This document shows positions 14,164 through 60,700 of a stretch of DNA of 64,000 bases, in pieces. The first letter of the stretch is position 1, and each line of letters starts with the position of its first letter. Below the pieces are notes generated by a model. That model had not been told where the DNA came from. It ran no database searches and saw only the letters and a program-made list of their open reading frames with translations. The DNA comes from Amoebophrya sp. A120 (Eukaryota > Protista > Dinoflagellata), in the NCBI GenBank assembly GCA_905178155.1, contig CAJINV010000009.1, positions 558,001 to 622,000 on the forward strand, written 5' to 3'. The position numbers and the translations under genes are program-made.

Positions 14164-15059
14164 GAATATGCATGGTATGGTCGTTTTTCAAACTTTTCCA
14201 AAAACTGAATCAGGAGGGTGTGATGCTTTCGCATGAGCTCTTCGTTTTTCAAATCCGCATGCTATGGTGAGACTTTTTTGGTCGCGCGCCTATTCCGCAT
14301 GGTGCGCTGCGTTTTTGTTTTTTCGAAGGCCATTCCACTGGGATGGTGTGCAGGTTTTTGCAGTGCAACCGGAAAATTTTGTAGCAAACCACTCAGGATG
14401 CTATGGTGACGTTTTGTTTTTTGTTACCCATTTTGGACGCAAGCAAAGAAAATTAGGAGCCGCTCGGGGAAGATAGACGATATCAATGAAAAAAGTAAAA
14501 AGTTTCGAAATCAATAAATTAGTATCTTCAATAAAAACAAAAAGTTGTCGGAAGCTGATTAGAAAGCTGAGCAACTTTTTTGAATACGTCAGTGCTGTGC
14601 TTGATGCAAAAAAATAACTCAGTGATCAGTACAATCCGCAGGGCATGCTGCATATTGAAGAACACGACGTGCGGTATTAAAAAGACAAGAATAAGAAAAC
14701 TGTGCCTGCTCCACTTTCGACCATCTTACGACTTTCTTAATACCCGCTCTCATCGTTATGAATGTTTTGCTCATGCAAAGGCACAACAAAAACAAGATTT
14801 TCCGGACCAGCTTATATCATCGCGTCAAAGATATGCACTTCTTTGTTGCGATCATGAGTAGCTCCGGGTCCTAGAAAAAGATCGATTTTCGGTCACCATA
14901 GTTTCTTAGCTGCGTCTGGTTTTATGAATCCAGAGTGTAGCTGCTTAGCTATGGAACACAACACTACTGCAACGTTTTCTCACAACAGCATCCACCATCT
15001 CGTGTAGCTTTTGCTTCAGTCAGTGGCAAAATTAGGAATAAAATGCATTGAAGTATATT

Positions 15060-15103
15060 TTTTGCCCGAGTCAAGTATTTAGCAGTGCATATTCTGGCTA
15101 CCC
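15060..15103 (+). promoter_or_regulatory. U6-type upstream element preceding SRP RNA
   Basis: TTTTGCCCGAGTCAAGTATTTAGCAGTGCATATTCTGGCTACCC. Confidence 0.75.
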
Positions 15104-15129
15104 AGAAGCGAGCTTCCTCCCTAGTGTAA

Positions 15130-15282
15130 GAGTCGGTCCTCTCCAAGAGTACAGTCGGTAAGGGGTCCACTGCGTAGGCGGTGGCTTCCTGGCTGATAAT
15201 GACTTCCGCACCGCCTCAGGCTGGCAACAGAGCAGGGAGAAGGAGGCGCTGCGCTCAGTGGAAGGATAGCCGGCTCGCTTTT
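15130..15282 (+). ncRNA. 7SL: SRP (7SL) RNA, short form (S domain only apparent)
   Basis: Helix 8 motif CAGG-CTG-GCAA-CAG-AGCAG. Helix 6 GGGGTCCACTGC-GTAG-GCGGTGGCTTC with a GNAR loop. Helix 5 GAGTCGGT/GCCGGCTC. Followed by T-runs. The 5' end could extend to ~15105. Confidence 0.85.
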
Positions 15283-15351
15283 GGTTTTTTTTTTGCCGTG
15301 TAGCTACTTTGGCACATTGGTACACTTCAGCGGCTGCAGTTCGTAGCAGGC

Positions 15352-15422
15352 GCGCCAGCGGTTCAGTGGTGGAGAACAACGCTCCGAGTGACGCAGCCTC
15401 GGTTCGAATCCCGCCTAGTGCA
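15352..15422 (+). pseudogene. Degenerate tRNA-Gly-like pseudogene
   Basis: 71 nt with a D-arm (GTTC/GAAC), GGTTCGAATCC box B and GCGCCAG/CTAGTGC acceptor, but broken anticodon and T stems. Sits directly before the tRNA-Gly array. Confidence 0.6.
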
Positions 15423-15549
15423 GGTTTTCGAAAACTGGGGACGCAGCGAATTTTCTCGGTGTTAGCGTTAGGCTCTTTTAAATTTCTCTCTTTGCCTCTC
15501 TGTTCTCGGAATCTCTTGTCCAGGCTCAGCTGTCAGTGGGAGAGCAGCA

Positions 15550-15620
15550 GCATCAGTGGTTTAGTGGTAGAATACGTCGTTGCCATCGACGTGACCCGGG
15601 TTCGATTCCCGGCTGATGCA
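15550..15620 (+). tRNA. trnG: tRNA-Gly(GCC) copy 1
   Basis: GCATCAG...ACGTCG-TT-GCC-AT-CGACGT...GGTTCGATTCC...CTGATGCA cloverleaf. Confidence 0.97.
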
Positions 15621-15734
15621 AGTTTTCAAAAATACCCCGACGCCCCCGCACGGCTTTCCTCGTTGTTTCGTTTGAGTCTTTTCCTTGCCACTCTCTCCTC
15701 AAATTCCGACTCGGTCGCCATCTAGGTGGCGACA

Positions 15735-15805
15735 GCATCAGTGGTTTAGTGGTAGAATACGTCGTTGCCATCGACGTGACCCGGGTTCGATTCCCGGCTG
15801 ATGCA
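15735..15805 (+). tRNA. trnG: tRNA-Gly(GCC) copy 2
   Basis: Identical to copy 1; T5 follows. Confidence 0.97.
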
Positions 15806-15952
15806 TTTTTCCGAAATTGCGCGCCGCCGACGCCAACAATTTATCCGCTGCCTGTTTCGCTTGAGTCATACATTCAATCAGTTGCCCGCTTTGCTACTCG
15901 CTTTCTCCTCGAAATCTCTTGCCCAGGTTCAGCTGTCAGTCTGCAAGCAGCA

Positions 15953-16023
15953 GCATCAGTGGTTTAGTGGTAGAATACGTCGTTGCCATCGACGTGACCC
16001 GGGTTCGATTCCCGGCTGATGCA
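15953..16023 (+). tRNA. trnG: tRNA-Gly(GCC) copy 3
   Basis: Identical to copy 1; T5 follows. Confidence 0.97.
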
Positions 16024-16166
16024 TTTTTCCGAAACTGCGCGACGCCAACGCCAAGAATTTCTTTGCTCCCTGTTTTGCTTGGGTCATTCAGTCGCTCGCT
16101 CTCTTTGTTCCTCGCTCTCTCCCCGAAATCTCTTGCACGGGGTCAGGCGCCAGTTTTGAAACAGGA

Positions 16167-16237
16167 GCATCAGTGGTTTAGTGGTAGAATACGTCGTTGC
16201 CATCGACGTGACCCGGGTTCGATTCCCGGCTGATGCA
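16167..16237 (+). tRNA. trnG: tRNA-Gly(GCC) copy 4
   Basis: Identical to copy 1; T-run follows. Confidence 0.97.
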
Positions 16238-16381
16238 TTTTTTGCGAATTATGCCCGACGCTAAGGATTCCGATTTCCTCGGTGCTTGGTGTGAGTTTCA
16301 GTGCCTCTTGTTGCGATTACCTCCCTCTCCCTTTGCTTTAAATTTTCTTGCTAGGGGTCGAGCGCCATCCTTTGAGCAGCG

Positions 16382-16452
16382 GCATCAGCGGTTTAGTGGT
16401 AGAATACGTCGTTGCCATCGACGTGAGCCGGGTTCGATTCCCGGCTGATGCA
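16382..16452 (+). tRNA. trnG: tRNA-Gly(GCC) copy 5 (U8C and one variable-loop change)
   Basis: Two substitutions relative to the other copies; stems intact. Confidence 0.88.
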
Positions 16453-16595
16453 TTTTTTTGCCAATTATGCCCGACGCTAAGGATTTCGAGTTCCTCGGTG
16501 TTTGGTGTGAGTTTCAGTATCGCTGTTTGCCATTGCTGCTCTCCCCTTACTTGAAATTTTCTTGCTAGGGGCCGGACGCCACCAGTTGGGTAGCG

Positions 16596-16666
16596 GCATC
16601 AGTGGTTTAGTGGTAGAATACGTCGTTGCCATCGACGTGACCCGGGTTCGATTCCCGGCTGATGCA
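16596..16666 (+). tRNA. trnG: tRNA-Gly(GCC) copy 6
   Basis: Identical to copy 1. Confidence 0.97.
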
Positions 16667-16809
16667 TTTTTTTGCGAATTATGCCCGACACTGAGGATTT
16701 CGATTTCCTCGCTGTTTGGTGTGGGTTTCAGTGTCGCTTTTTGCCATTGCCGCTCTCTTCTTACTTGAAAATTTCTTGCTAGGGGCCGAGCGCCAACCTG
16801 TGGGCAGCG

Positions 16810-16880
16810 GCATCAGTGGTTTAGTGGTAGAATACGTCGTTGCCATCGACGTGGCCCGGGTTCGATTCCCGGCTGATGCA
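16810..16880 (+). tRNA. trnG: tRNA-Gly(GCC) copy 7
   Basis: One variable-loop substitution. Confidence 0.95.
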
Positions 16881-17015
16881 AGTTTTCGAAAATGCCCCGA
16901 CGCCCCCCAGGGCTTTCCTCGTTGTTTCGTACGTTTGAGTCTTTTCTTTGCCGCCCTCTCCTCGAATTGCTTCGCTTTGGGTCCAAACTCGGTCGCCATC
17001 TAGTATGTCGCAACA

Positions 17016-17086
17016 GCATCAGTGGTTTAGTGGTAGAATACGTCGTTGCCATCGACGTGACCCGGGTTCGATTCCCGGCTGATGCA
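17016..17086 (+). tRNA. trnG: tRNA-Gly(GCC) copy 8
   Basis: Identical to copy 1. Confidence 0.97.
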
Positions 17087-17114
17087 TTTTACAAAAAAAA
17101 TTGCCGCGTGGGTT

Positions 17115-17160
17115 TTTTTCTCCCGAATTCGGTATTTAGCAGTACGTAATCTGGCTACCC
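17115..17160 (+). promoter_or_regulatory. U6-type upstream element preceding orphan RNA
   Basis: TTTTTCTCCCGAATTCGGTATTTAGCAGTACGTAATCTGGCTACCC. Confidence 0.7.
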
Positions 17161-17185
17161 ACTAATACCGACCCCTCCTCAATAC

Positions 17186-17330
17186 GTAGGCTGGAAGCCT
17201 CTCCGACTTCGGTCGCGCGAGGCTTGCTCGCCGTGACGTTGTCATCGCTCAAGCGGGGCACTCACAAATTAGCGCGAGCCGCTCCTCCTCGCCAGCCGGG
17301 GGTCCGCAATGACTTTAGAACTACACTTTT
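17186..17330 (+). ncRNA. Unidentified ~145-nt structured RNA (putative Pol III transcript)
   Basis: Starts 26 nt after the U6-type element and ends in TTTT. Hairpin AAGCCTC..CGAC-TTCG-GTCG..GAGGCTT; stems GCTCGC/GCGAGC and GGCTGG/CCAGCC. Confidence 0.55.
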
Positions 17331-17493
17331 ATCGCGCTGCAGGTGTAGGAGCTCCTACTGCTGATTGACCTATCCGCTTCTGCATACTGAAGATAACGAT
17401 CGTGTAAGGCATGCAGGGGAACTTAGTTGGCTCCTCTCCGCGTTCATCCCCCCGAACCTTTAAAGACCGGCAGCCAGACGATTTTTTGCAGCT

Positions 17494-17566
17494 GCCCGGT
17501 TAGCTCAGTCGGTAGAGCGCCAGGCTCTTAACCTGGTGGTCGTGGGTTCGAGCCCCACATCGGGCG
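17494..17566 (+). tRNA. trnK: tRNA-Lys(CTT)
   Basis: GCCCGGT...CCAGG-CT-CTT-AA-CCTGG...GGTTCGAGCCC...ATCGGGCG. Confidence 0.97.
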
Positions 17567-17678
17567 ACTTATTTTGCGCGCCTGAGATTGATGCACGGCT
17601 TTAGCTCGATGCTCGCAAGTGCAAATGGTCACCCTAGAAATAGAGCGATCTGCTCAACGCGGTGGACTAGGGCCATCA

Positions 17679-17751
17679 GCCCGGTTAGCTCAGTCGGTAG
17701 AGCGCCAGCCTTTTAAGCTGGTGGTCGTGGGTTCGAGCCCCACATCGGGCG
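17679..17751 (+). tRNA. trnK: tRNA-Lys(TTT)
   Basis: Same body as the CTT copies; anticodon arm CCAGC-CT-TTT-AA-GCTGG. Confidence 0.95.
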
Positions 17752-17899
17752 GCTTTTGCGCGCCTGAGATTTAGGGCACCAGCTCGATGGTGGCAAGTGC
17801 TAGCGCAAATGATCTCTTTAGAGTGTGGGCAGCTTATCGTCCTTGGATACGTGGGCACACAAGCAGCAATCAGTTCAAACCGGCGGGCAACGTTCCGCA

Positions 17900-17972
17900 G
17901 CCCGGTTAGCTCAGTCGGTAGAGCGCCAGGCTCTTAACCTGGTGGTCGTGGGTTCGAGCCCCACATCGGGCG
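17900..17972 (+). tRNA. trnK: tRNA-Lys(CTT)
   Basis: Identical to the 17494 copy. Confidence 0.97.
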
Positions 17973-18098
17973 ACTTTTGCGCGCCTGGGATTTACGCGCT
18001 CAGCTCGATGCTGGCAAGTGCAAAAAGTAACTCCGGAGTAGGTTGGGATTATCGTCCTAAAGCAGCAGTCTCGACCACGTAGCAGAGTGTTTTCGTTA

Positions 18099-18171
18099 GC
18101 CCGGTTAGCTCAGTCGGTAGAGCGCCAGGCTCTTAACCTGGTGGTCGTGGGTTCGAGCCCCACATCGGGCG
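18099..18171 (+). tRNA. trnK: tRNA-Lys(CTT)
   Basis: Identical to the 17494 copy. Confidence 0.97.
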
Positions 18172-18353
18172 TCTTTTGGCGACGGTGCCTGCGCTAGCGG
18201 CGACGCGGCCGCGAGGTGATCGCGTCGGTGCGTAATTGGTCCGATGGAAAAAAAAATACGGCGTCGTCCTCGTGGGGCCGCCCCAAAATAAAGACGAACG
18301 CACACACACTCCTATTGATTCGCATAATTTTACGAACACCTGTCACTCTACAG

Positions 18354-53647: not shown

Positions 53648-54149
53648 ATCATCTCGGTCCCCTACGAGGTGCCGACCATTGACACGGTGAATCTGCAGTA
53701 CAAGGACCAGTTCCTGTACCCGTTCTACGGCGTGCAGCACATCTACCAGATCCGGGCGGTGAACCGGTTAGGCGTCGGGGTGAATTCTATGCCGTCCGTG
53801 CCGATTCTGTCCGCCGGACCGCCGCCCCCGCCGTTTCTGCGGGTCGTGAACCGGACGTCGACGCAAATCGCCTTCGGCTGGGGCACGCCTTTTGACAACG
53901 GCGCGACGATCGCGGCCTACGCCGTGTACCGGGATAACATCCGGGTTTTCTTCGGCATGGAAAATGCGTACACCGATACCAATGTTCTTGGTGGTATCAC
54001 GTACAACTACCGCATTTCCGCCTGGAACGCGGCGGGGGAAGGCGAAAGGAGCAAGGAGTACGCGATTTCTTCCTGCCGATTACCGAACAAGCCCGCGGAC
54101 TACAAGATCCAACACGCGTACAGTGGGTTTCGCCTCACGTGGACCATGC
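53648..54149 (+). CDS. Exon 17 of giant protein (FN3)
   Basis: ORF 53669..54184; YNYRISAWNAAGEG; donor C|gtatgc. Confidence 0.85.
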
Positions 54150-54350
54150 GTATGCAGGGAAGGGTGCTGAGCTTGAGTGTTTAATACTCTGATTGTGTTT
54201 TTTTATCTGGGATCGAGTTCCAGTCCCAGTGTTTAGTTTAACACAGACATCATTCATCGGTGTTGTACCCGAGCCCAACTGGAGGGTTTTTCTGGGGAAC
54301 AACGGCGTGGGCAGCGCAGCTTCGCGCACTTTTTTCTTTTATTTTCATTT

Positions 54351-54395
54351 TTTTTGCCCGAATAGGTGTGTTTAGCAGAGCTATTCTGAGCACCC
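54351..54395 (+). promoter_or_regulatory. U6-type upstream element, array copy 1
   Basis: TTTTTGCCCGAATAGGTGTGTTTAGCAGAGCTATTCTGAGCACCC. Confidence 0.7.
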
Positions 54396-54420
54396 GGGTC
54401 CACGCTTGCGCACTTCAGCA

Positions 54421-54645
54421 GTGGCGCGGGTAGCACTGAGACCGACGGGTCGTGTGCAATCCTGTCATATGCGCACGCCCAAGAGGTGGTCCTGCGGGTG
54501 CGACGCTCTAGGGACTGATCATCCCAGTGAGAGCGACGCAGTGCGAGGAGCCGCCGACAGATCTCTGGCATCGGATGCGGCGATATGATGGCGACCCCCC
54601 AAAGACCAGAGATGCTCCGACAGTCCGCGCCCGGGCGCCCTTTTT
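54421..54645 (+). ncRNA. Unidentified structured RNA family, copy 1
   Basis: GGCGCGG/CCGCGCC closing stem, conserved internal blocks, T5 terminator. Confidence 0.75.
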
Positions 54646-54744
54646 GGTTCTTTCGGCGGACTTCGACAGCGGGGACAGAGAGATGGTTGACAGCCATTAA
54701 ACGCATTCGATTGCGTTTGTGGCTTTTTCGTTTTATTTTGCTGG

Positions 54745-54788
54745 TTTTGCCCGAATGGATGTGTTTAGCACAGCTATTCTGGCTACCC
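54745..54788 (+). promoter_or_regulatory. U6-type upstream element, array copy 2
   Basis: TTTTGCCCGAATGGATGTGTTTAGCACAGCTATTCTGGCTACCC. Confidence 0.72.
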
Positions 54789-54813
54789 AGTTCTGGGCTT
54801 GTGCAAATTGTCA

Positions 54814-55076
54814 ATAGCGTGGGTAGCGCAGATATCTGAGCACATCTGTCATATCCGCACGCCAAGCGGCGACCTCGACAGCCCAGATCAATGGACTTGT
54901 CTGAACGTCGGACTCAATCCGACCGGACACGAGGGGCTGCTGGTCCTGCGGGTGCGGTGCTTGAGGGATTCGCGACCCCGATGAGAGCGACGTGGTGCGA
55001 GGGGGCCGCCTCCAGATCTCTGACGGTCGGCGAACGGCCAGAGATGCCCCGACAGTCCGCGCCAGGGCCCTTTTTT
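54814..55076 (+). ncRNA. Unidentified structured RNA family, copy 2
   Basis: Same conserved blocks with a long variable insert; T6 terminator. Confidence 0.75.
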
Positions 55077-55321
55077 CTGTGTCTGGGCGTTTTCTGGGGG
55101 TGCTGAAATGTAGGATACAAGACCGAGCTGTGGTTGTGGACTTGCGTGTCGACTCTAATTGTGTTTTTTCATTTCTGGATCGCATTCCAGTGTTTAGTTT
55201 AGCACCGACATTGACATTCTGATTCTGGGTCGTGCCCACCCTGTGGGTTTTTGTTTTTTTGGGGACCAATGGCCTAGGCAGCGCAGCGTCCGTCGCGCAC
55301 ATTTTCCATTTATTTCCCTGC

Positions 55322-55366
55322 TTTTTGCCCGAATGCGTGTGTTTAGCAGAGCTATTCTGGCTACCC
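55322..55366 (+). promoter_or_regulatory. U6-type upstream element, array copy 3
   Basis: TTTTTGCCCGAATGCGTGTGTTTAGCAGAGCTATTCTGGCTACCC. Confidence 0.72.
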
Positions 55367-55391
55367 CGGTCTGCGCTTGCGCCGGTTGGCA

Positions 55392-55624
55392 ATGGCGCGG
55401 GTAGCATTAGAATGCAGTCCTGTCATGTGCGCACGCCAAACCTTCCTTTCTGCGCCTGCCGCAATCCTGATCCGAAACCGCACTTTCCCTGGTCCTGCGG
55501 GTGCGCCGCTTGAGGGATTGATCACCCTGATGATAGTGACGTAGTGCGAGGGGCCGCCGCAAGATCTCTGCGAGCGAGGTGACGACCTTCGAGCCAGAGA
55601 TGCCCCGACAGTCCGCGCCTTTTT
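55392..55624 (+). ncRNA. Unidentified structured RNA family, copy 3
   Basis: Same conserved blocks; T5 terminator. Confidence 0.75.
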
Positions 55625-55733
55625 GGTTTTATTTGGCGGCTCGCTGCGCCGGGGAGGGAAAAACGCCCGGCATCCCGTCCGCGCTTTTCTGTCAGATTTG
55701 TAACTCAGAACGTTTTTCGTTGTTCCTGCTCGA

Positions 55734-55758
55734 GGGTTTCGCCTCACGTGGACCATGC
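55734..55758 (+). repeat. 25-nt exact copy of the 3' end of exon 17 (54125-54149)
   Basis: GGGTTTCGCCTCACGTGGACCATGC at both places. Confidence 0.85.
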
Positions 55759-55831
55759 TTGGTTGCCTGCGTATGTGATGGAAATAAAGTAGGCTGAGGA
55801 GCTTGCTTTTGGTTTTTCATTTTTTTCAATG

Positions 55832-55880
55832 TTTTTGCCTGGTATGGAGTCAGTGTTTAGCTTAGGTATTCTGGCTACCC
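55832..55880 (+). promoter_or_regulatory. U6-type upstream element, array copy 4
   Basis: TTTTTGCCTGG..GTGTTTAGCTTAGGTATTCTGGCTACCC. Confidence 0.68.
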
Positions 55881-55905
55881 TATTTTAGGGATGTTCTCCT
55901 TGGCA

Positions 55906-56125
55906 CAGGCGCGGGTAGCACGAGTAGTTGTGCAGAACTGTCATAGCCGCACGTCGAGATCCCTCGTGCGAGCCACGAGGGTTCGGTCCTGCGGGTGCGA
56001 CGCTCGAGGGGTCACAGACCCCGATGAGGGCGATATAGTGCGAGGGGCCGCCGTCAGATCTCTGGTATGCCCACCTATGACCCCGGAGAGCTAGAGATGC
56101 CCCGACGGTCCGCGCCCGGGTTTTT
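55906..56125 (+). ncRNA. Unidentified structured RNA family, copy 4
   Basis: Same conserved blocks; textbook kink-turn CGCTC-GA-GGGGTC/GACCCC-GAT-GA-GGGCG; T5 terminator. Confidence 0.75.
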
Positions 56126-56366
56126 CTCGCTTCTGCACCGGGGTAGGGGACAGACGAGATTTCGGGCAGCCCGCGAGCGCTTTTCGTGTGTTTTGTTCGC
56201 TCAATCCGAGTGTCTTATTTTATCCTCTGTGGACTTAGACTGTGTCAAGGAATGCGCTAAGGTTACTGAAAACGCACGGACAGTAACGAAAAACGCTAGC
56301 GCGAGGAACAGGCACGGCGCGGGGATTGGTCTTTAGTTTGTCCACGTTTTTGCATTTATTTCTTCT

Positions 56367-56411
56367 TTTTTGCCCGAGAGCCTGTATTTAGCGGCGATAT
56401 TCTGGGTACCC
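56367..56411 (+). promoter_or_regulatory. U6-type upstream element, array copy 5
   Basis: TTTTTGCCCGAGAGCCTGTATTTAGCGGCGATATTCTGGGTACCC. Confidence 0.7.
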
Positions 56412-56436
56412 TGTTCGCGCCTTGCGCATCTAGGCA

Positions 56437-56669
56437 GAAGCGCGGGTAGCACAGAATGTTGTGCGAAACTGTCATGTCCGTGCGCCGATTGAGAGCCGGA
56501 TGCTACCTGCGTCCCCAGCATGGCCCGGCCCTGCGGGTGCTCACCAGAGGGACTAGCTATCCCGAAGACGGTGATGCAGCACGAAGGGAGGCTGTCGATA
56601 GCCGTATCACCTGCTTGGCAACGCAATTGCCACAGAGATCCCCGGACAGTCCGCGCGCGCGCGCATTTT
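56437..56669 (+). ncRNA. Unidentified structured RNA family, copy 5 (divergent)
   Basis: Compensatory changes CGTGC/GCACG and CACC/GGTG; T-run terminator. Confidence 0.7.
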
Positions 56670-56839
56670 GTTTTTGCTTGGCTGCATGGCAAGAAATTGA
56701 TAGCGACCCTGTTTCCGGCGCGCGCGATGTGTCTTCAGCTTGTTCTACAAGTACAGCTGGCCGCTCTTCTTATTCAAGCAAGGGGGCATCGTCATAGTGC
56801 CCGAGAGTGGTCCTTGCCCAGGAGCTGCAGAAACAACAA

Positions 56840-57079
56840 GGCGTGGGGATTTATTCGGTACCTCGCGGGGACAAGAGTCGAGCGAGAGTCCGGTCCTGCG
56901 GCGGCGACGCACGAGGGGTTCATTAAAACCCTGAGGACGGTGGCGCAGCAGGAGGGAAGGCCTTCGGCTTCGCCACTTTTCCAAACCACGGCTGCGCGAC
57001 CAATCACCCTGCCAGGCCAGCAGCGCTCGCTGCCTCAGAGATGAAGCTTCACAGTCCACCGCGCCCGCGCGCCCTTTTT
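56840..57079 (+). pseudogene. Degenerate copy 6 of the RNA family (plus an extra 3'-end fragment at ~57140-57179)
   Basis: Keeps GGTCCTGCG, the kink-turn hairpin, CAGAGATG, ACAGTCC and T5. Only a TGCCCGAGAG remnant of the upstream element remains. Confidence 0.55.
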
Positions 57080-57340
57080 CGCCCTTTGCGAATCTCGAGT
57101 GGGAAAGGAACTTTCCAGCTGTGTGGCAGGGACAAATGCCAGTGAGATCCCCGACAGCCCACGCTCGCGCGCGCTTTTTCGTGTTTGCGCGTTTTCTATT
57201 GTGACAGTGCGCTTCTGGTAGCTCGGGTGGCTTGGAGCACGGGCATAGCGTGGGACGGTCACGGTCCTCCGCATTTCTACAATTTTCATTCGCCCAGCTC
57301 TTTTCTTTCATGTGTGTTTTTCTCTGCAGAAGTGTTTTGA

Positions 57341-57385
57341 TTTTCCCCCGAAAGTGGGTATTTAGCAAAGATGATCTGACTACCT
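57341..57385 (+). promoter_or_regulatory. U6-type upstream element, array copy 7
   Basis: TTTTCCCCCGAAAGTGGGTATTTAGCAAAGATGATCTGACTACC. Confidence 0.62.
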
Positions 57386-57410
57386 AGACACGGGCTTGCC
57401 GCTCTGAGCA

Positions 57411-57636
57411 GTAGCACGCACGGGGAGCACACATACGTGTGCACTCCTGCCTTGAACGCACTGGATTCCCTCACTGTAAGTTGCGAATCGACGGACAGGG
57501 CGAGGCCCAGTCCTGTGGGTGCGACGCCTGAGGGTCTAATCAATCTGCTGACGGCGACGCAGCGTGAGGGGTCACGAAGAACTTGGAGACAGAAGTCAGC
57601 AAGGACTTCGAGACCCGGCGGCCCGTGCGCTTTTTT
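57411..57636 (+). ncRNA. Unidentified structured RNA family, copy 7 (most divergent intact copy)
   Basis: Covarying stems GCACGGG/CCCGTGC, CTGCC/GGCGG, GGGTC/GACCC and CGCC/GGCG; T6 terminator. Confidence 0.68.
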
Positions 57637-57788
57637 AGATTCGTGTCAACTTCGTTTGTCACCAAGGTGTGTCTGCTCTTGGGCTCTCGCCTTCTTAGGT
57701 TCAACCTCATGGCTGGCGCAGGTTGAGAAATTTGTTTCTCCACCTCGTCTTCAACAGAAGGCAACTCAGCACCATTTTCCTCGCATAC

Positions 57789-60700
57789 TCCCTCCGTCCA
57801 ACGCCTGCGAGATCATGTCCTTCAAGGTCTACCTCGATGGCACTGTGATCGACGAAATCAGTAGCCTGCGGTCCAAGCGCCCTCCCTTCTACTACGAAAT
57901 CTCCGCTGCGAAGAACAATCTTCTTATTGGTCAGAAGTACAACATCAGCCTGGCTTCCAGCTCCCAGGGTGGCGAAAACGCAGCTGCGTCGGAAGAGAGC
58001 TTTGTCGTCCCGCCGACCGTCGGGCAGAATGTGCTCGGTATTCACGAGCAAAGGCCGAATAGCATCGTGCTGGAGTTCTACTTGGAGGACGACGGCTACG
58101 CCAATTCCTACCCGAGCTACAGCACCGGGCTCGGAGAGTCGCAGCAACTGCCCTCGGAGCCGACAAACGTGACGCTGAACAAGATGGGGCACGCGACGAT
58201 CCACAGCTACGAGAAGATCGAGGAGACGCAACACCGGACGGTGTGGTACAACCAGGACAGAAACGAAAATTCGCTTGTCGCGAATCTGTACTACGAGAAG
58301 CGCTTCGTCGGCAGTCATAGCCTCGCGAAGGTGCCGAATCTGCAAATGAAAGAGACGGACTCGCACATCCATCATTCCTCCGTCGACGGGCCACGGATCC
58401 CCTTCGACGAACTTCCCCCCGCACCGCCAATGGACCCGCCGTTCGAGCGGTTCCCGCCCGTGCCGGAGTACCGGGCGTTGCGAAGACTGAGCTACCACAG
58501 TGGTTCGGGCTACGGATACAGCACACCGACACCGACTCCAACGCCGAGCTACTCCCCCTCCCCAGTCCCGGTTTCGAGCCCTTCGCCTGCCCCGGTGTAC
58601 AGCGCACCAACGCCCGTACCGACGACGACGGCCGTGAGCTCCTCCGGCAGTTCATCTAGTGGCTCCACCGGCGTAGCAACCACGGGGGGCTCTTCTGCGA
58701 GTAGGACCACCGTGCTCACTTCGTCGTCTGAGTTGGAAGCGCGCGCGCAAATGCAAACGGAGGACACGATGTACTCGGTGTTGCCGCCGGCGAGTGCCAG
58801 CTTGCGCCAGGTCGTTGCATCGACCGGCACAGCAGCTTCTGGAACTAGCGCGTCCGCTGATCAGCGGGAAACCCTTGGCAGTCTCCTCCCGGACTTCACC
58901 TTTCACGCTGTTGATGCCCGGGGAAGCTCCGTCGACTTCCGAACCCATTCGACTGTGGAAGAGGTGAGAGTTTCAGATGCGCTGGACTCGATTTCTCTGT
59001 TCATCGAAAACGAGCAAGTGCGCGAGAAGCACCTCGCCCGCGCGAAGCAGCGCTTCGCGTTGCAGGTGCAGAACTTGGATGTCAAGGGCCCGACGGACAA
59101 GCAAACCGAGATCAACAAAGTGCCCAAAAATCTGCAGTACGTGAACCCGCGGAAGGAGCTGAACGTGGCGCCAAACGTGTTCGCGAACGTGAACCAAACG
59201 GCCGTGTTCACCAATCCGAATTCGAAAACTTTGGAATCCCTAACCGAACTCCTCGACCCATCGCGCGTGTACAAGTCCGCGATCGTCCCGGACAGCACTG
59301 TTTCCCCGGTTGCTGTGTCGGGTTTGAAAACCATCGACACGCTGGGCAACTACTTCAACCCCGAGGGCATTGAGCAGTTCCAGTCCATCGGCAGGCTGAA
59401 GCAGCGGGGCAAGTCGCAGGCGAATCACCCGTCGGGGTTGAGCTACCGGAAGGACACGATCTTGGAGGACAGTTTGGAGACTGTGAAACTGAACGAAGAC
59501 CCAGACGAGTTCTTCACGGAGGGGATCAATCCCTTCGCCAGGTCGCAGTTGGTGAAAATGGGCCTCTTGTCTCACGCGCTAACGAACGACGGGCACCCGG
59601 CCGACACGTTTTTCGACGGCGATAAATCTCGAGTAGCTTCTGTCCGACCGTCGAAGGTGCTCACCCCGAAGCCGGCGACGTCTCGCGTCCCCGACCGGAG
59701 GATAATCCGGGTCAGGATGGAGATTTTGGATTTGGAGTACAAGCAGAAATACTGCTTCAAAGTGTTTGGCAAGAACCCCAAAATCCCGAATGACGCCCTG
59801 CACTCCCCCGAGATCTGCGCAGTCTCCGCCCCGGCCCCGGAATTAACCTACGTCGACCTAGTCGCGAACGAGGAGGGCCAGACGCGGGCGAACCAGTTCC
59901 GCGTGAAATTCCCGCCGGCGAACGGGGACGACGTGATTGGCTACGAGGTGCAGGCACTGTACAGGTCGGGACCAAGGAACTTGATCGACAACAGTGTGCA
60001 GCAAGAGAATCTCCTGAAGAAAATCTCCCGGGTCGTCCCCTCGGAAAAAACTCGCGACATTCCGCTCTCCTGCGACTACATGCAGGACGTGTACGAGAAG
60101 GTTTCCGTCCGCGGGATTTCTTCCACGACCGGGTACGGCCGCCCGCAGGTGTTTCGAAATGTTTCCTGCACTTTGAAACCGGAGGTGTACCCGCCGCGGA
60201 TCCGGCATACGAAGCTGATCAAGAACAACGGGGAACAACCCTACTGCCAGCTCACCGTCGACTTTGCGCCGGCCAAGGGAGACGGGAACGCGGTCTACGA
60301 GTACAGTTTGTATTTGAGACCGTCAGGGACGATCGAGCCGTTCAGGTTAGTTGGGATGGCGACACGGAAGCCGGATTACGACCAAGTGAAGGCCATCATG
60401 CTCGCGGCGGCGAACGAGAAAAACACGGTGTTGCTGCCGGATTTGGACTACGTGAGAGACATGCTGGCGAAAGCGCAGGAGTCGGAAGCACAAGGGTCTT
60501 CTCGCAACATCTCTCAACCGATCGACTACGAATACAGAAAAGCGGAAACTTACGGCCCGTACAAGTACAATTTCACGACGGGAAAAGCCGGGCTGATTAT
60601 CCCGCGGCTTTTACCGAACGACACGCGCGAGTACTGGTACCAGTTTGTCAGCTCGTACTTGGACAAGTCCGGCCAGGTCGGGGCAAATTACGGCGGATCG

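Follow-up and report, generated by a model that had tools for sequence, protein, structure and literature searches.

A candidate new family of structured RNAs with U6-type promoters and a kink-turn pattern in a probable intron of Amoebophrya sp. A120

Within a 64,000-nt window of the Amoebophrya sp. A120 genome (contig CAJINV010000009.1, forward-strand positions 558,001 to 622,000; all coordinates below are those of the window), positions 54351 to 57636 hold a tandem array of seven related copies of an RNA gene. Our analysis indicates that this array is a real, likely expressed and uncatalogued RNA family under structural selection. We propose, giving the reading about an even chance, that the copies represent a new class of RNA polymerase III (Pol III) scaffold RNA whose kink-turn (K-turn) is bound by a Snu13/L7Ae-type protein, and that they would serve as the framework of a nuclear RNA-processing particle, not as base-pairing guides. 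The proposal builds on the promoter-like element, the start pattern at a fixed distance of 25 nt, the T-run, selection on the scaffold and the promoter, and contigs confined to single copies. New classes of mid-sized structured RNA are rare in eukaryotes. This one occurs in a lineage with an RNA-processing puzzle, and the array supplies named candidates, a candidate protein partner and a search model; in Amoebophrya, GT-AG ends are absent from most introns and the U1 small nuclear RNA (snRNA) is missing while its proteins remain (PMC7789003).

Promoter, terminator and transcripts

Each of the six intact copies (c1 to c5 and c7) lies behind an upstream element (USE) of about 45 bp. Scanning both strands of the 64 kb with a profile of this element yields exactly 10 strong sites, all on the plus strand, with scores of 38.0-65.9; the next best score, 10.4, is a 1-base shift of a true site. 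These sites precede U6, the signal recognition particle (SRP) RNA, two unannotated RNAs (12807 and 17184) and the six intact copies. The array features and the two reference sites are as follows:

13985-14030 (+): reference USE of U6, from the profile scan; U6 itself at 14056-14161 (Rfam)
15058-15103 (+): reference USE of SRP RNA, from the profile scan; Rfam SRP match at 15129-15276
54351-54395 (+): USE of copy 1, profile score 60.3
54420-54645 (+): copy 1 (c1) RNA gene with T5; 221 nt; K-turn arm 54504-54535, U at 2n
54744-54788 (+): USE of copy 2, profile score 61.5
54813-55076 (+): copy 2 (c2) RNA gene with T6; 258 nt; 78-nt insert; K-turn arm 54958-54989
55322-55366 (+): USE of copy 3, profile score 65.9
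55391-55624 (+): copy 3 (c3) RNA gene with T5; 229 nt; K-turn arm 55507-55538
55836-55880 (+): USE of copy 4, 5' half (CCCGAA) altered, profile score 38.0
55905-56125 (+): copy 4 (c4) RNA gene with T5; 216 nt; K-turn arm 56001-56032; folding z -2.2
56367-56411 (+): USE of copy 5, profile score 56.4
56436-56669 (+): copy 5 (c5) RNA gene with T4; 230 nt; K-turn arm 56542-56573; last hairpin rearranged
56840-57079 (+): copy 6 (c6), decayed, with T5; lacks the USE, the first hairpin and the 5' strand of P3 but retains the core and the K-turn pattern (56908-56942)
57140-57179 (+): isolated 3'-end fragment of an eighth copy, with T5; repeat family D4
57341-57385 (+): USE of copy 7, profile score 49.4
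57410-57636 (+): copy 7 (c7) RNA gene with T6, the most diverged; 221 nt; K-turn arm 57525-57556; folding z -4.85

In all six intact copies, a CA dinucleotide sets an A at +25 from the last base of the USE, and U6 and SRP RNA likewise carry a purine at this distance. T-runs follow at 54641 (T5), 55071 (T6), 55620 (T5), 56121 (T5), 56666 (T4) and 57631 (T6). The preliminary description of the array had proposed an element common to U6 and SRP RNA, a start some 25-30 nt further on and an end in T4-6; all six copies agree, with the start at +25. A USE common to U6, a fixed start distance and a terminator of at least four T are the hallmarks of type-3-promoter Pol III genes, and their presence here suggests that the array copies are transcribed by Pol III. 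The same features are found in U6 and in the telomerase RNAs of plants, ciliates and stramenopiles (PMC8287931); the array differs from these genes in its unrelated RNA body, its lack of a telomere template and its multigene tandem layout. The USE of c4 has lost its 5' CCCGAA half and has the lowest score of the ten, 38.0.

A separate observation concerns the end of this element. The last 7 bases of the c2 USE (54782-54788) are the exact reverse complement of bases close to the 5' end of the RNA (54821-54827), as is also the case in c3 and c4; the match is weaker elsewhere (6/7 in c5, 4/7 in c1 and c7), and this complementarity may be due to chance.

Evidence for transcripts comes from run X4, which is likely RNA and in which five contigs align over their full length with 0 differences, each inside one copy:

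54427-54639: contig in c1, depth 30.9, ends 2 nt before the T-run
54829-55015: contig in c2, depth 5.6, ends 56 nt before the T-run
55402-55619: contig in c3, depth 28.8, ends 1 nt before the T-run
56450-56642: contig in c5, depth 34.6, ends 24 nt before the T-run
57426-57625: contig in c7, depth 15.5, ends 6 nt before the T-run

The contigs start 7-16 nt past the predicted start sites. In total, 26 records of X4 matched; among the 8 listed, the other 3 match a neighbouring introner. X4 gave no cover on c4, c6, the spacers or the flanking exons; for c4 and c6 this is in line with a promoter element that is altered in the one and absent from the other, without proving that the two are silent. 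The preliminary description had allowed that discrete transcripts might be absent; instead, the contigs of this one likely-RNA run are confined to single copies, and the copies are likely expressed as discrete transcripts. Other runs added little: X5, X6 and X7 gave 0, 0 and 2 matching reads, the organism not being shown to be present there; X8 and X9 gave 0 matching contigs; and the 8 records of X3, patchy and with indels, we read as low-coverage DNA.

In DNA run X1, which is possibly the source of the window, one contig covers the whole region at a depth of 43.3. The RNA bodies and the intron ends are at single-copy depth; extra depth appears only in bins that contain the core of c2 or the USE of one of three copies (c2, c3, c4). 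The USE recurs on many further X1 contigs with unrelated flanks (records matching 54735-54792 and 55322-55370), so the genome likely holds dozens more RNA genes with this type of promoter. Among the 8 listed of 47 matching records, 6 match the USE only and 1 matches the core (51/63 bases, on another contig of 2.9 kb), which argues that the USE is used at many other loci; at least one further family member likely exists elsewhere in the genome. Whatever the family does, the USE offers a handle for listing every snRNA-type gene in the genome, among them those for U1, RNase P/MRP, U3 and telomerase RNAs, which are still missing. For expressing guide RNAs in this group, it is also a candidate promoter of the U6 type.

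Conserved scaffold, predicted fold and kink-turn

The six intact RNAs are 216-258 nt long, with a GC content of 61-66%. Over their 15 pairs, mean identity is 0.75 in the 122-nt scaffold (0.64-0.86) and 0.75 in the USE, compared to 0.55 in the 120 nt upstream, 0.58 in the 27-nt spacer and 0.53 in the 80 nt downstream, against a shuffle baseline of 0.47-0.55. The scaffold and the promoter are kept by selection while the flanks decay. The block GGTCCTGCGGGTGC, earlier called near-invariant, is exact in four of the six and differs at one base in c5 and at two in c7; ahead of it stands a variable insert of 8-78 nt, close to the 10-80 nt first estimated for the insert before GGTCC. The three variable segments may be peripheral helices that tolerate insertions.

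A covariance model of the family picks out the seven copies and nothing else in the window; they score 65.9-84.5 bits, as follows from the way the model was built, and the best non-member scores 11.5 bits. The core of c6 reaches 65.9 bits in this model, which was built partly from c6 itself. That one copy had decayed was noted at the outset, and c6 indeed has no USE and keeps its core. The family would evolve through tandem duplication and loss.

To predict the fold, the six intact copies were aligned with MAFFT, without adjustment by hand, and the alignment was passed to RNAalifold, which returned 45 pairs, 11 of them with double changes, and 95.1% of the 264 cells are paired; none of 500 shuffles matched either the pairing or the double-change count, and slid registers of the same fold are only 30-53% paired. 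A hand-registered model gave 230/240 paired cells and double changes in 10/40 pairs. The two agree in the main helices, RNAalifold leaving the K-turn positions unpaired. For the core alone, with c6 included, 91.8% of 98 cells are paired; 6/500 shuffles reach this pairing and 163/500 reach the number of double-change pairs.

The predicted fold is nested, with three junctions, and by comparison of the copies would comprise P1, P3, P4, P9 and the K-turn arm. In the model, P1 closes the 5' and 3' ends; junction 1 joins P1, the first hairpin and P3; junction 2 joins P3, P4 and the last arm (P9 and a variable tip); and junction 3 joins P4, the variable insert and the K-turn arm. The compensatory changes first proposed by eye are all present in the sequence: GGCGCGG/CCGCGCC becomes GCACGGG/CCCGTGC in copy 7, CTGTC/GACAG becomes CTGCC/GGCGG, CGCAC/GTGCG becomes CGTGC/GCACG in copy 5, and GGGGC/GCCCC becomes GGAGC/GCTCC in copy 1 and GGGTC/GACCC in copy 7. 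A pseudoknot of 4 bp is a further candidate: GCGG in the conserved block could pair with the linker that follows P9, in c1-c4 and, with a double change, also in c7, although this pairing fails in c5 and c6.

The long arm contains a feature that had been missed before. In all seven copies it runs stem, GA, GGG stem, loop, stem, 3-nt bulge, GA, stem, which is the pattern of a K-turn (3-nt bulge, GA/GA and both stems) and corresponds to the standard K-turn as defined in PMC5061560. The bulge, always on the 3' strand, reads GAT in three copies and GAA, GAG, GCT and AGT in the others; the U at 2n of c1 (A.U) is a variant known from Kt-23 (PMC2790904). A motif scan places the K-turn motif at the homologous site in 6/6 intact copies, compared to about 0.016 matches per 220 nt outside the array; one further, chance-like match overlaps the 5' end of c4. 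The suggestion in the preliminary description that these are ribonucleoprotein (RNP) RNAs thereby gains a concrete footing.

The 3b,3n pairs are G.C (c1, c4), G.U (c2), U.U (c3), C.A (c5), C.C (c6) and C.U (c7). Under the rules given in PMC5061560, a K-turn with G.C or G.U at this position folds poorly without protein, and one with C at 3b folds with ions. The protein-dependent class is represented by three of the six intact copies, c3 has U.U, and c5 and c7 are of the 3b=C type; given that the classes differ among the copies, the evidence that protein binding is obligatory points both ways. c3 also carries TGATGA on the bulged strand. A Snu13 orthologue (as 'Snu113', NP_004999) is recorded in both Amoebophrya strains in Table S6 of PMC7789003, as is Prp31 for Amoebophrya. 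The K-turn would bend the short terminal hairpin and may be the protein's point of entry.

Several points weigh against the proposal of a new scaffold RNA class. The covariation statistics rest on six related paralogues, with the structure derived from the same sequences; related sequences can beat shuffles in double-change counting, and 9/11 double-change cells come from c5 and c7. Single-copy folding z scores are -0.33, -0.43, 0.01, -2.2, -0.34 and -4.85 (c1-c5 and c7), near 0 in four of the six, and the constrained model lies 11.8-18.3 kcal/mol above the minimum in all six, under an energy model that has no K-turn or protein contacts. TGCG appears twice in the conserved block and so allows the helix beneath the K-turn arm two registers of equal quality; in the common register P5 does not form in c7, and in c5 only 3/5 of the P9 pairs form. 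The upstream flanks of c1 and c3 are alike over 128/158 aligned columns, so part of the likeness of these two copies is due to recent duplication. X4 is one run of one study, consisting of contigs whose RNA type is guessed and not on record, and contigs reveal neither strand nor exact ends. Finally, exact-match pattern scans, which are blind to diverged relatives, found no homologue in other organisms.

Known RNA families and alternative functions

The array has no match in Rfam 15 at gathering scores, and at E 1-10 it has chance matches only, as does c4 when searched by itself; U6, SRP RNA and the tRNAs of the same window have strong matches. The earlier failure to recognise a known family is upheld by this check, with no credible match up to E 10, and the idea of a multigene family with a constant scaffold and variable segments has likewise held, given the promoter, the kept fold and the absence of an Rfam family. 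We also searched the six intact copies for hallmark motifs: those of U1, U2, U4, U5, RNase P, MRP, SRP, spliced leader (SL) RNA, the telomerase template, box C and the tRNA boxes occur in 0/6, and the 4-letter box D word occurs in 4/6.

The U1 snRNA was rejected: the leader before P1 is only 3 nt (7 nt in c7), there is no U1 motif and no excess pairing with donors, the six bodies contain no Sm motif, and conservation ends at the T-run (identity beyond it is 0.53, against 0.52 for shuffled sequence). For U4/U4atac, pairing of the conserved block with U6 is within the shuffle range in 6/6 copies (30th-51st percentile), and the cofold gain is not below the 6th percentile. The K-turn of the U4 5' stem-loop has its bulge on the 5' strand, opposite to the 3' strand used here in 7/7 copies. 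Telomerase RNA was set aside with no rotation of the two templates searched for, TTTAGGG and TTAGGG, in 6/6 copies; SRP RNA, with the helix 8 SRP54 motif and its GNRA loop in 0/6 and the true SRP RNA at 15129; and the dinoflagellate SL RNA, with the DinoSL exon in 0/6. An Alu-domain reading of the 5' end, considered because the local SRP RNA lacks that domain, was dropped since CTGTC pairs in P3 with compensatory support and the Rfam SRP models are silent.

Outside this genome, a degenerate core pattern hit 5 stretches in metagenome contigs, which we take as chance because they lack the family's flanking helices and several lie inside open frames; it had 0 matches in viral contigs. In prokaryote genomes the USE pattern had 57 single matches, about as many as chance predicts. 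No description of such an RNA was found in the literature, with most subscription journals and all figures outside the scope, and none appears in the parts of PMC7789003 that were consulted. We conclude that this is a new RNA family, set apart from every family tested, with about one chance in five that it is a far-diverged known RNA instead.

One such relative would be RNase P/MRP RNA, whose descendants might have kept the outer architecture (closing helix, variable first and last hairpins and a K-turn arm for Pop3/Rpp38) and lost or rewritten the catalytic core; we consider this unlikely, ranking it third among the alternatives. Size, type-3-like promoter, closing helix, sites of length variation in peripheral hairpins and a K-turn arm appear alike in layout; P1 joins the 5' and 3' ends of the array RNAs, which is an RNase P/MRP trait; and K-turns in RNase P are bound by L7Ae-family proteins (PMC5061560). 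In contrast, the CR-I and CR-V patterns are found in 0/6 copies, there is no P2/P4 pseudoknot, bulged U or linker before the 3' strand of P3, and no Rfam RNase P or MRP match appears at E up to 10.

The K-turn itself invites comparison with RNPs built on Snu13/15.5K, in U4, U3 box B/C and box C/D RNAs, where a 3-nt bulge likewise precedes tandem GA pairs. The array differs from these in having one internal K-turn, no terminal C/D motif and no free 5' domain. Relative to U4 in particular, the orientation is opposite and U6 pairing is absent; several copies do fall in the same protein-dependent 3b,3n class as U4 (PMC5061560). That the array RNAs are of a U3-like or box C/D type, much diverged, and work in pre-rRNA processing by way of the internal K-turn is improbable in our view. 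The canonical stem is on the loop side, as in box C'/D' and U3 box B/C, c3 has TGATGA on the bulged strand together with U.U at 3b,3n, and the size fits U3; against this, the terminal box C/D pair is lacking, a full box C occurs in 0/6 copies, the ends are closed by a GC-rich helix with no free 5' domain, and there is no Rfam match to U3 or other small nucleolar RNAs.

The closest analogy in layout may be the Class I RNAs of dictyostelids (PMC7919456), also a lineage-restricted multigene family with an upstream element, a compensating closing stem, a short conserved block and otherwise variable sequence. Those RNAs are about 60 nt long and AT-rich, with one stem, DUSE and an 11-nt motif, whereas the array copies are longer (216-258 nt) and GC-rich (61-66%), and their predicted fold includes a K-turn and three junctions. 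There is no sequence relation and no Rfam match, so the comparison would be one of analogy only.

As to function, the preliminary description had raised the possibility of guide or adaptor RNAs. In this form, the copy-specific segments or the GGUCCUGCGG block would pair with introner ends or other RNAs and replace the missing U1. The constant-plus-variable layout speaks for such a role, as does the position of the conserved block outside the main helices in the RNAalifold register. The pairing tests do not. Within the window, the 17 variable segments have antisense matches no better than chance would give; of the 11 segments that measure at least 16 nt, 7 fold on themselves with at least half of their bases in pairs. 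Neither the six copies nor the block pair in excess with 8 donor and 8 acceptor introner ends (controls, 115 and 81 exon sites); the largest gap, -14.4 vs -12.2 for c3 with acceptors, is below that of the SRP RNA control. When the block was compared with U6, SRP RNA, the two unannotated RNAs and two tRNAs, 0/36 comparisons were below the 13th shuffle percentile. The 5' leader is only 3 nt. A 14-nt match of the last loop of c4 (0/60 shuffles; one of 17 segments) was set aside, being in sense orientation to coding sequence at 9218. In the window, to which the antisense search was confined, a guide role has found no support; with rRNA, other snRNAs and mRNAs beyond the reach of that search, we judge it unlikely rather than refuted, and the foremost of the alternatives. 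Of the earlier interpretation, the promoter-driven family with a conserved fold is supported, with contig evidence for discrete transcripts, the RNP reading has gained a basis in the K-turn pattern, and the guide or adaptor function is not supported.

We return to the scaffold RNA that would be bound by a Snu13/L7Ae-type protein. Nuclear RNA processing is our best guess for its role because eukaryotic K-turn particles of the Snu13 type act in splicing (U4) and in ribosome and tRNA maturation (U3, box C/D, RNase P). Within this reading, a splicing-related process takes the largest share of our belief, short of half; pre-rRNA or pre-tRNA processing takes a little over a third, and a regulatory or decoy particle the remaining quarter. 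A more specific version, unlikely and second in rank among the alternatives, would make the RNA an snRNA of an altered splicing machinery, in which the Snu13-bound scaffold reads the paired introner ends by shape, sets the cut at a fixed distance and replaces U1, with paralogues tuned to introner families.

Amoebophrya is an intracellular parasite, and the copies could also be precursors or decoys whose variable hairpins yield small RNAs acting in the infected host. Cuscuta microRNA loci with U6 promoters provide a precedent (10.1101/2022.07.06.498962), and the USE recurs on many other contigs. The variable arms, however, are short, irregular or branched, unlike microRNA stems; conservation is mostly in the complex scaffold; and the X4 contigs cover the copies at near full length. 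We hold this to be as improbable as a U3-like origin.

Finally, the array could be a selfish or decaying repeat, either a short interspersed nuclear element (SINE)-like element or transposon cargo, whose structure serves its own replication. Tandem duplication with decayed copies (c6 and the 3' fragment) and the position of the array between inverted repeats of an introner-type element fit this idea. In contrast, the promoter is external and could not be carried along by a retroposed copy, there are no A/B boxes and no tRNA call, the RNA bodies are at single-copy depth in X1 with the core matched on one other contig (51/63 bases), and the scaffold and promoter are kept while the flanks decay. 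A tRNA-derived SINE was rejected on the same hallmarks, which the preliminary description had left as a way in which its reading might fail; a selfish repeat of any kind is, in our estimate, very improbable.

The host intron and neighbouring RNA genes

The window holds a single giant plus-strand gene, or several genes of the same orientation in a row, encoding FN3 and YHYH domains (Pfam fn3 in the open reading frames, ORFs, that flank the array); a protein search found two relatives of the YHYH part at 35-38% identity, and a search with another stretch gave 0 matches. Co-oriented plus-strand ORFs at 2017-63910 total about 17,000 codons, single ORFs reaching 3,600 and 4,991 amino acids, which suggests one giant surface protein gene split by introners. 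Its introns are in the main TAT...ATA inverted-repeat elements, which match the Amoebophrya introners described in PMC7789003. The best repeat pair scores at least 10 at 7/13 ORF junctions, and in 7/7 such elements the ORFs join in frame when the cut falls 1 base before and 4 bases after the element (the -1/+4 rule).

The array lies in one of these introns:

54150-57791 (+): host intron, introner-type, from TAT at 54151 to ATA at 57787, inside the giant FN3-domain gene; about 3.6 kb

Its terminal inverted repeat is about 23 bp long (54150-54171 / 57765-57788), and its removal under the -1/+4 rule joins the flanking ORFs in frame. On the basis of the repeat ends and this in-frame join, rather than of a spliced read, the array is probably intronic, as had been proposed. 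The 5-bp duplication is decayed and we read the element as old; the intron is of the same type as the introners of PMC7789003, and the array would be cargo in a single such element, old and enlarged. The final 25 bases of the exon upstream (54125-54149) are repeated exactly inside the intron at 55734-55758, in the spacer that separates c3 from c4; after them comes a decayed version of the introner's left end. The identity is perfect amid diverged neighbours.

The introns of the giant gene host other RNA genes as well. A single intron at 13760-18350 (+) carries, in tandem, U6, SRP RNA, 8 tRNA-Gly(GCC), 4 tRNA-Lys and the 17184 RNA. This unannotated RNA gene (17115-17330, +), behind a USE, encodes about 143 nt with a T4 end and a predicted four-way junction plus 3' hairpin; it has no Rfam match. 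Its topology recalls U1, but it has no Sm site or U1-70K loop, its 5' arm would be 3-5 nt at the usual spacing, and it shows no consistent pairing to 8 introner donors. A second unannotated RNA gene behind a USE, at 12737-13013 (+), encodes about 202 nt with a T5 end and likewise has no Rfam match; one K-turn motif match lies at 12926, and this 12807 RNA is a candidate for a diverged U3-type RNA. Ahead of the tRNA-Gly array, a tRNA-like stretch at about 15345-15425 (+), with no ARAGORN or Rfam match, is possibly a decayed tRNA gene. The SRP RNA (15128-15283, +) starts at +25 from its USE, has its T-run at 15279 and matches only positions 101-249 of the 299 in the Rfam model; it appears to consist of the S domain alone, without the Alu domain.

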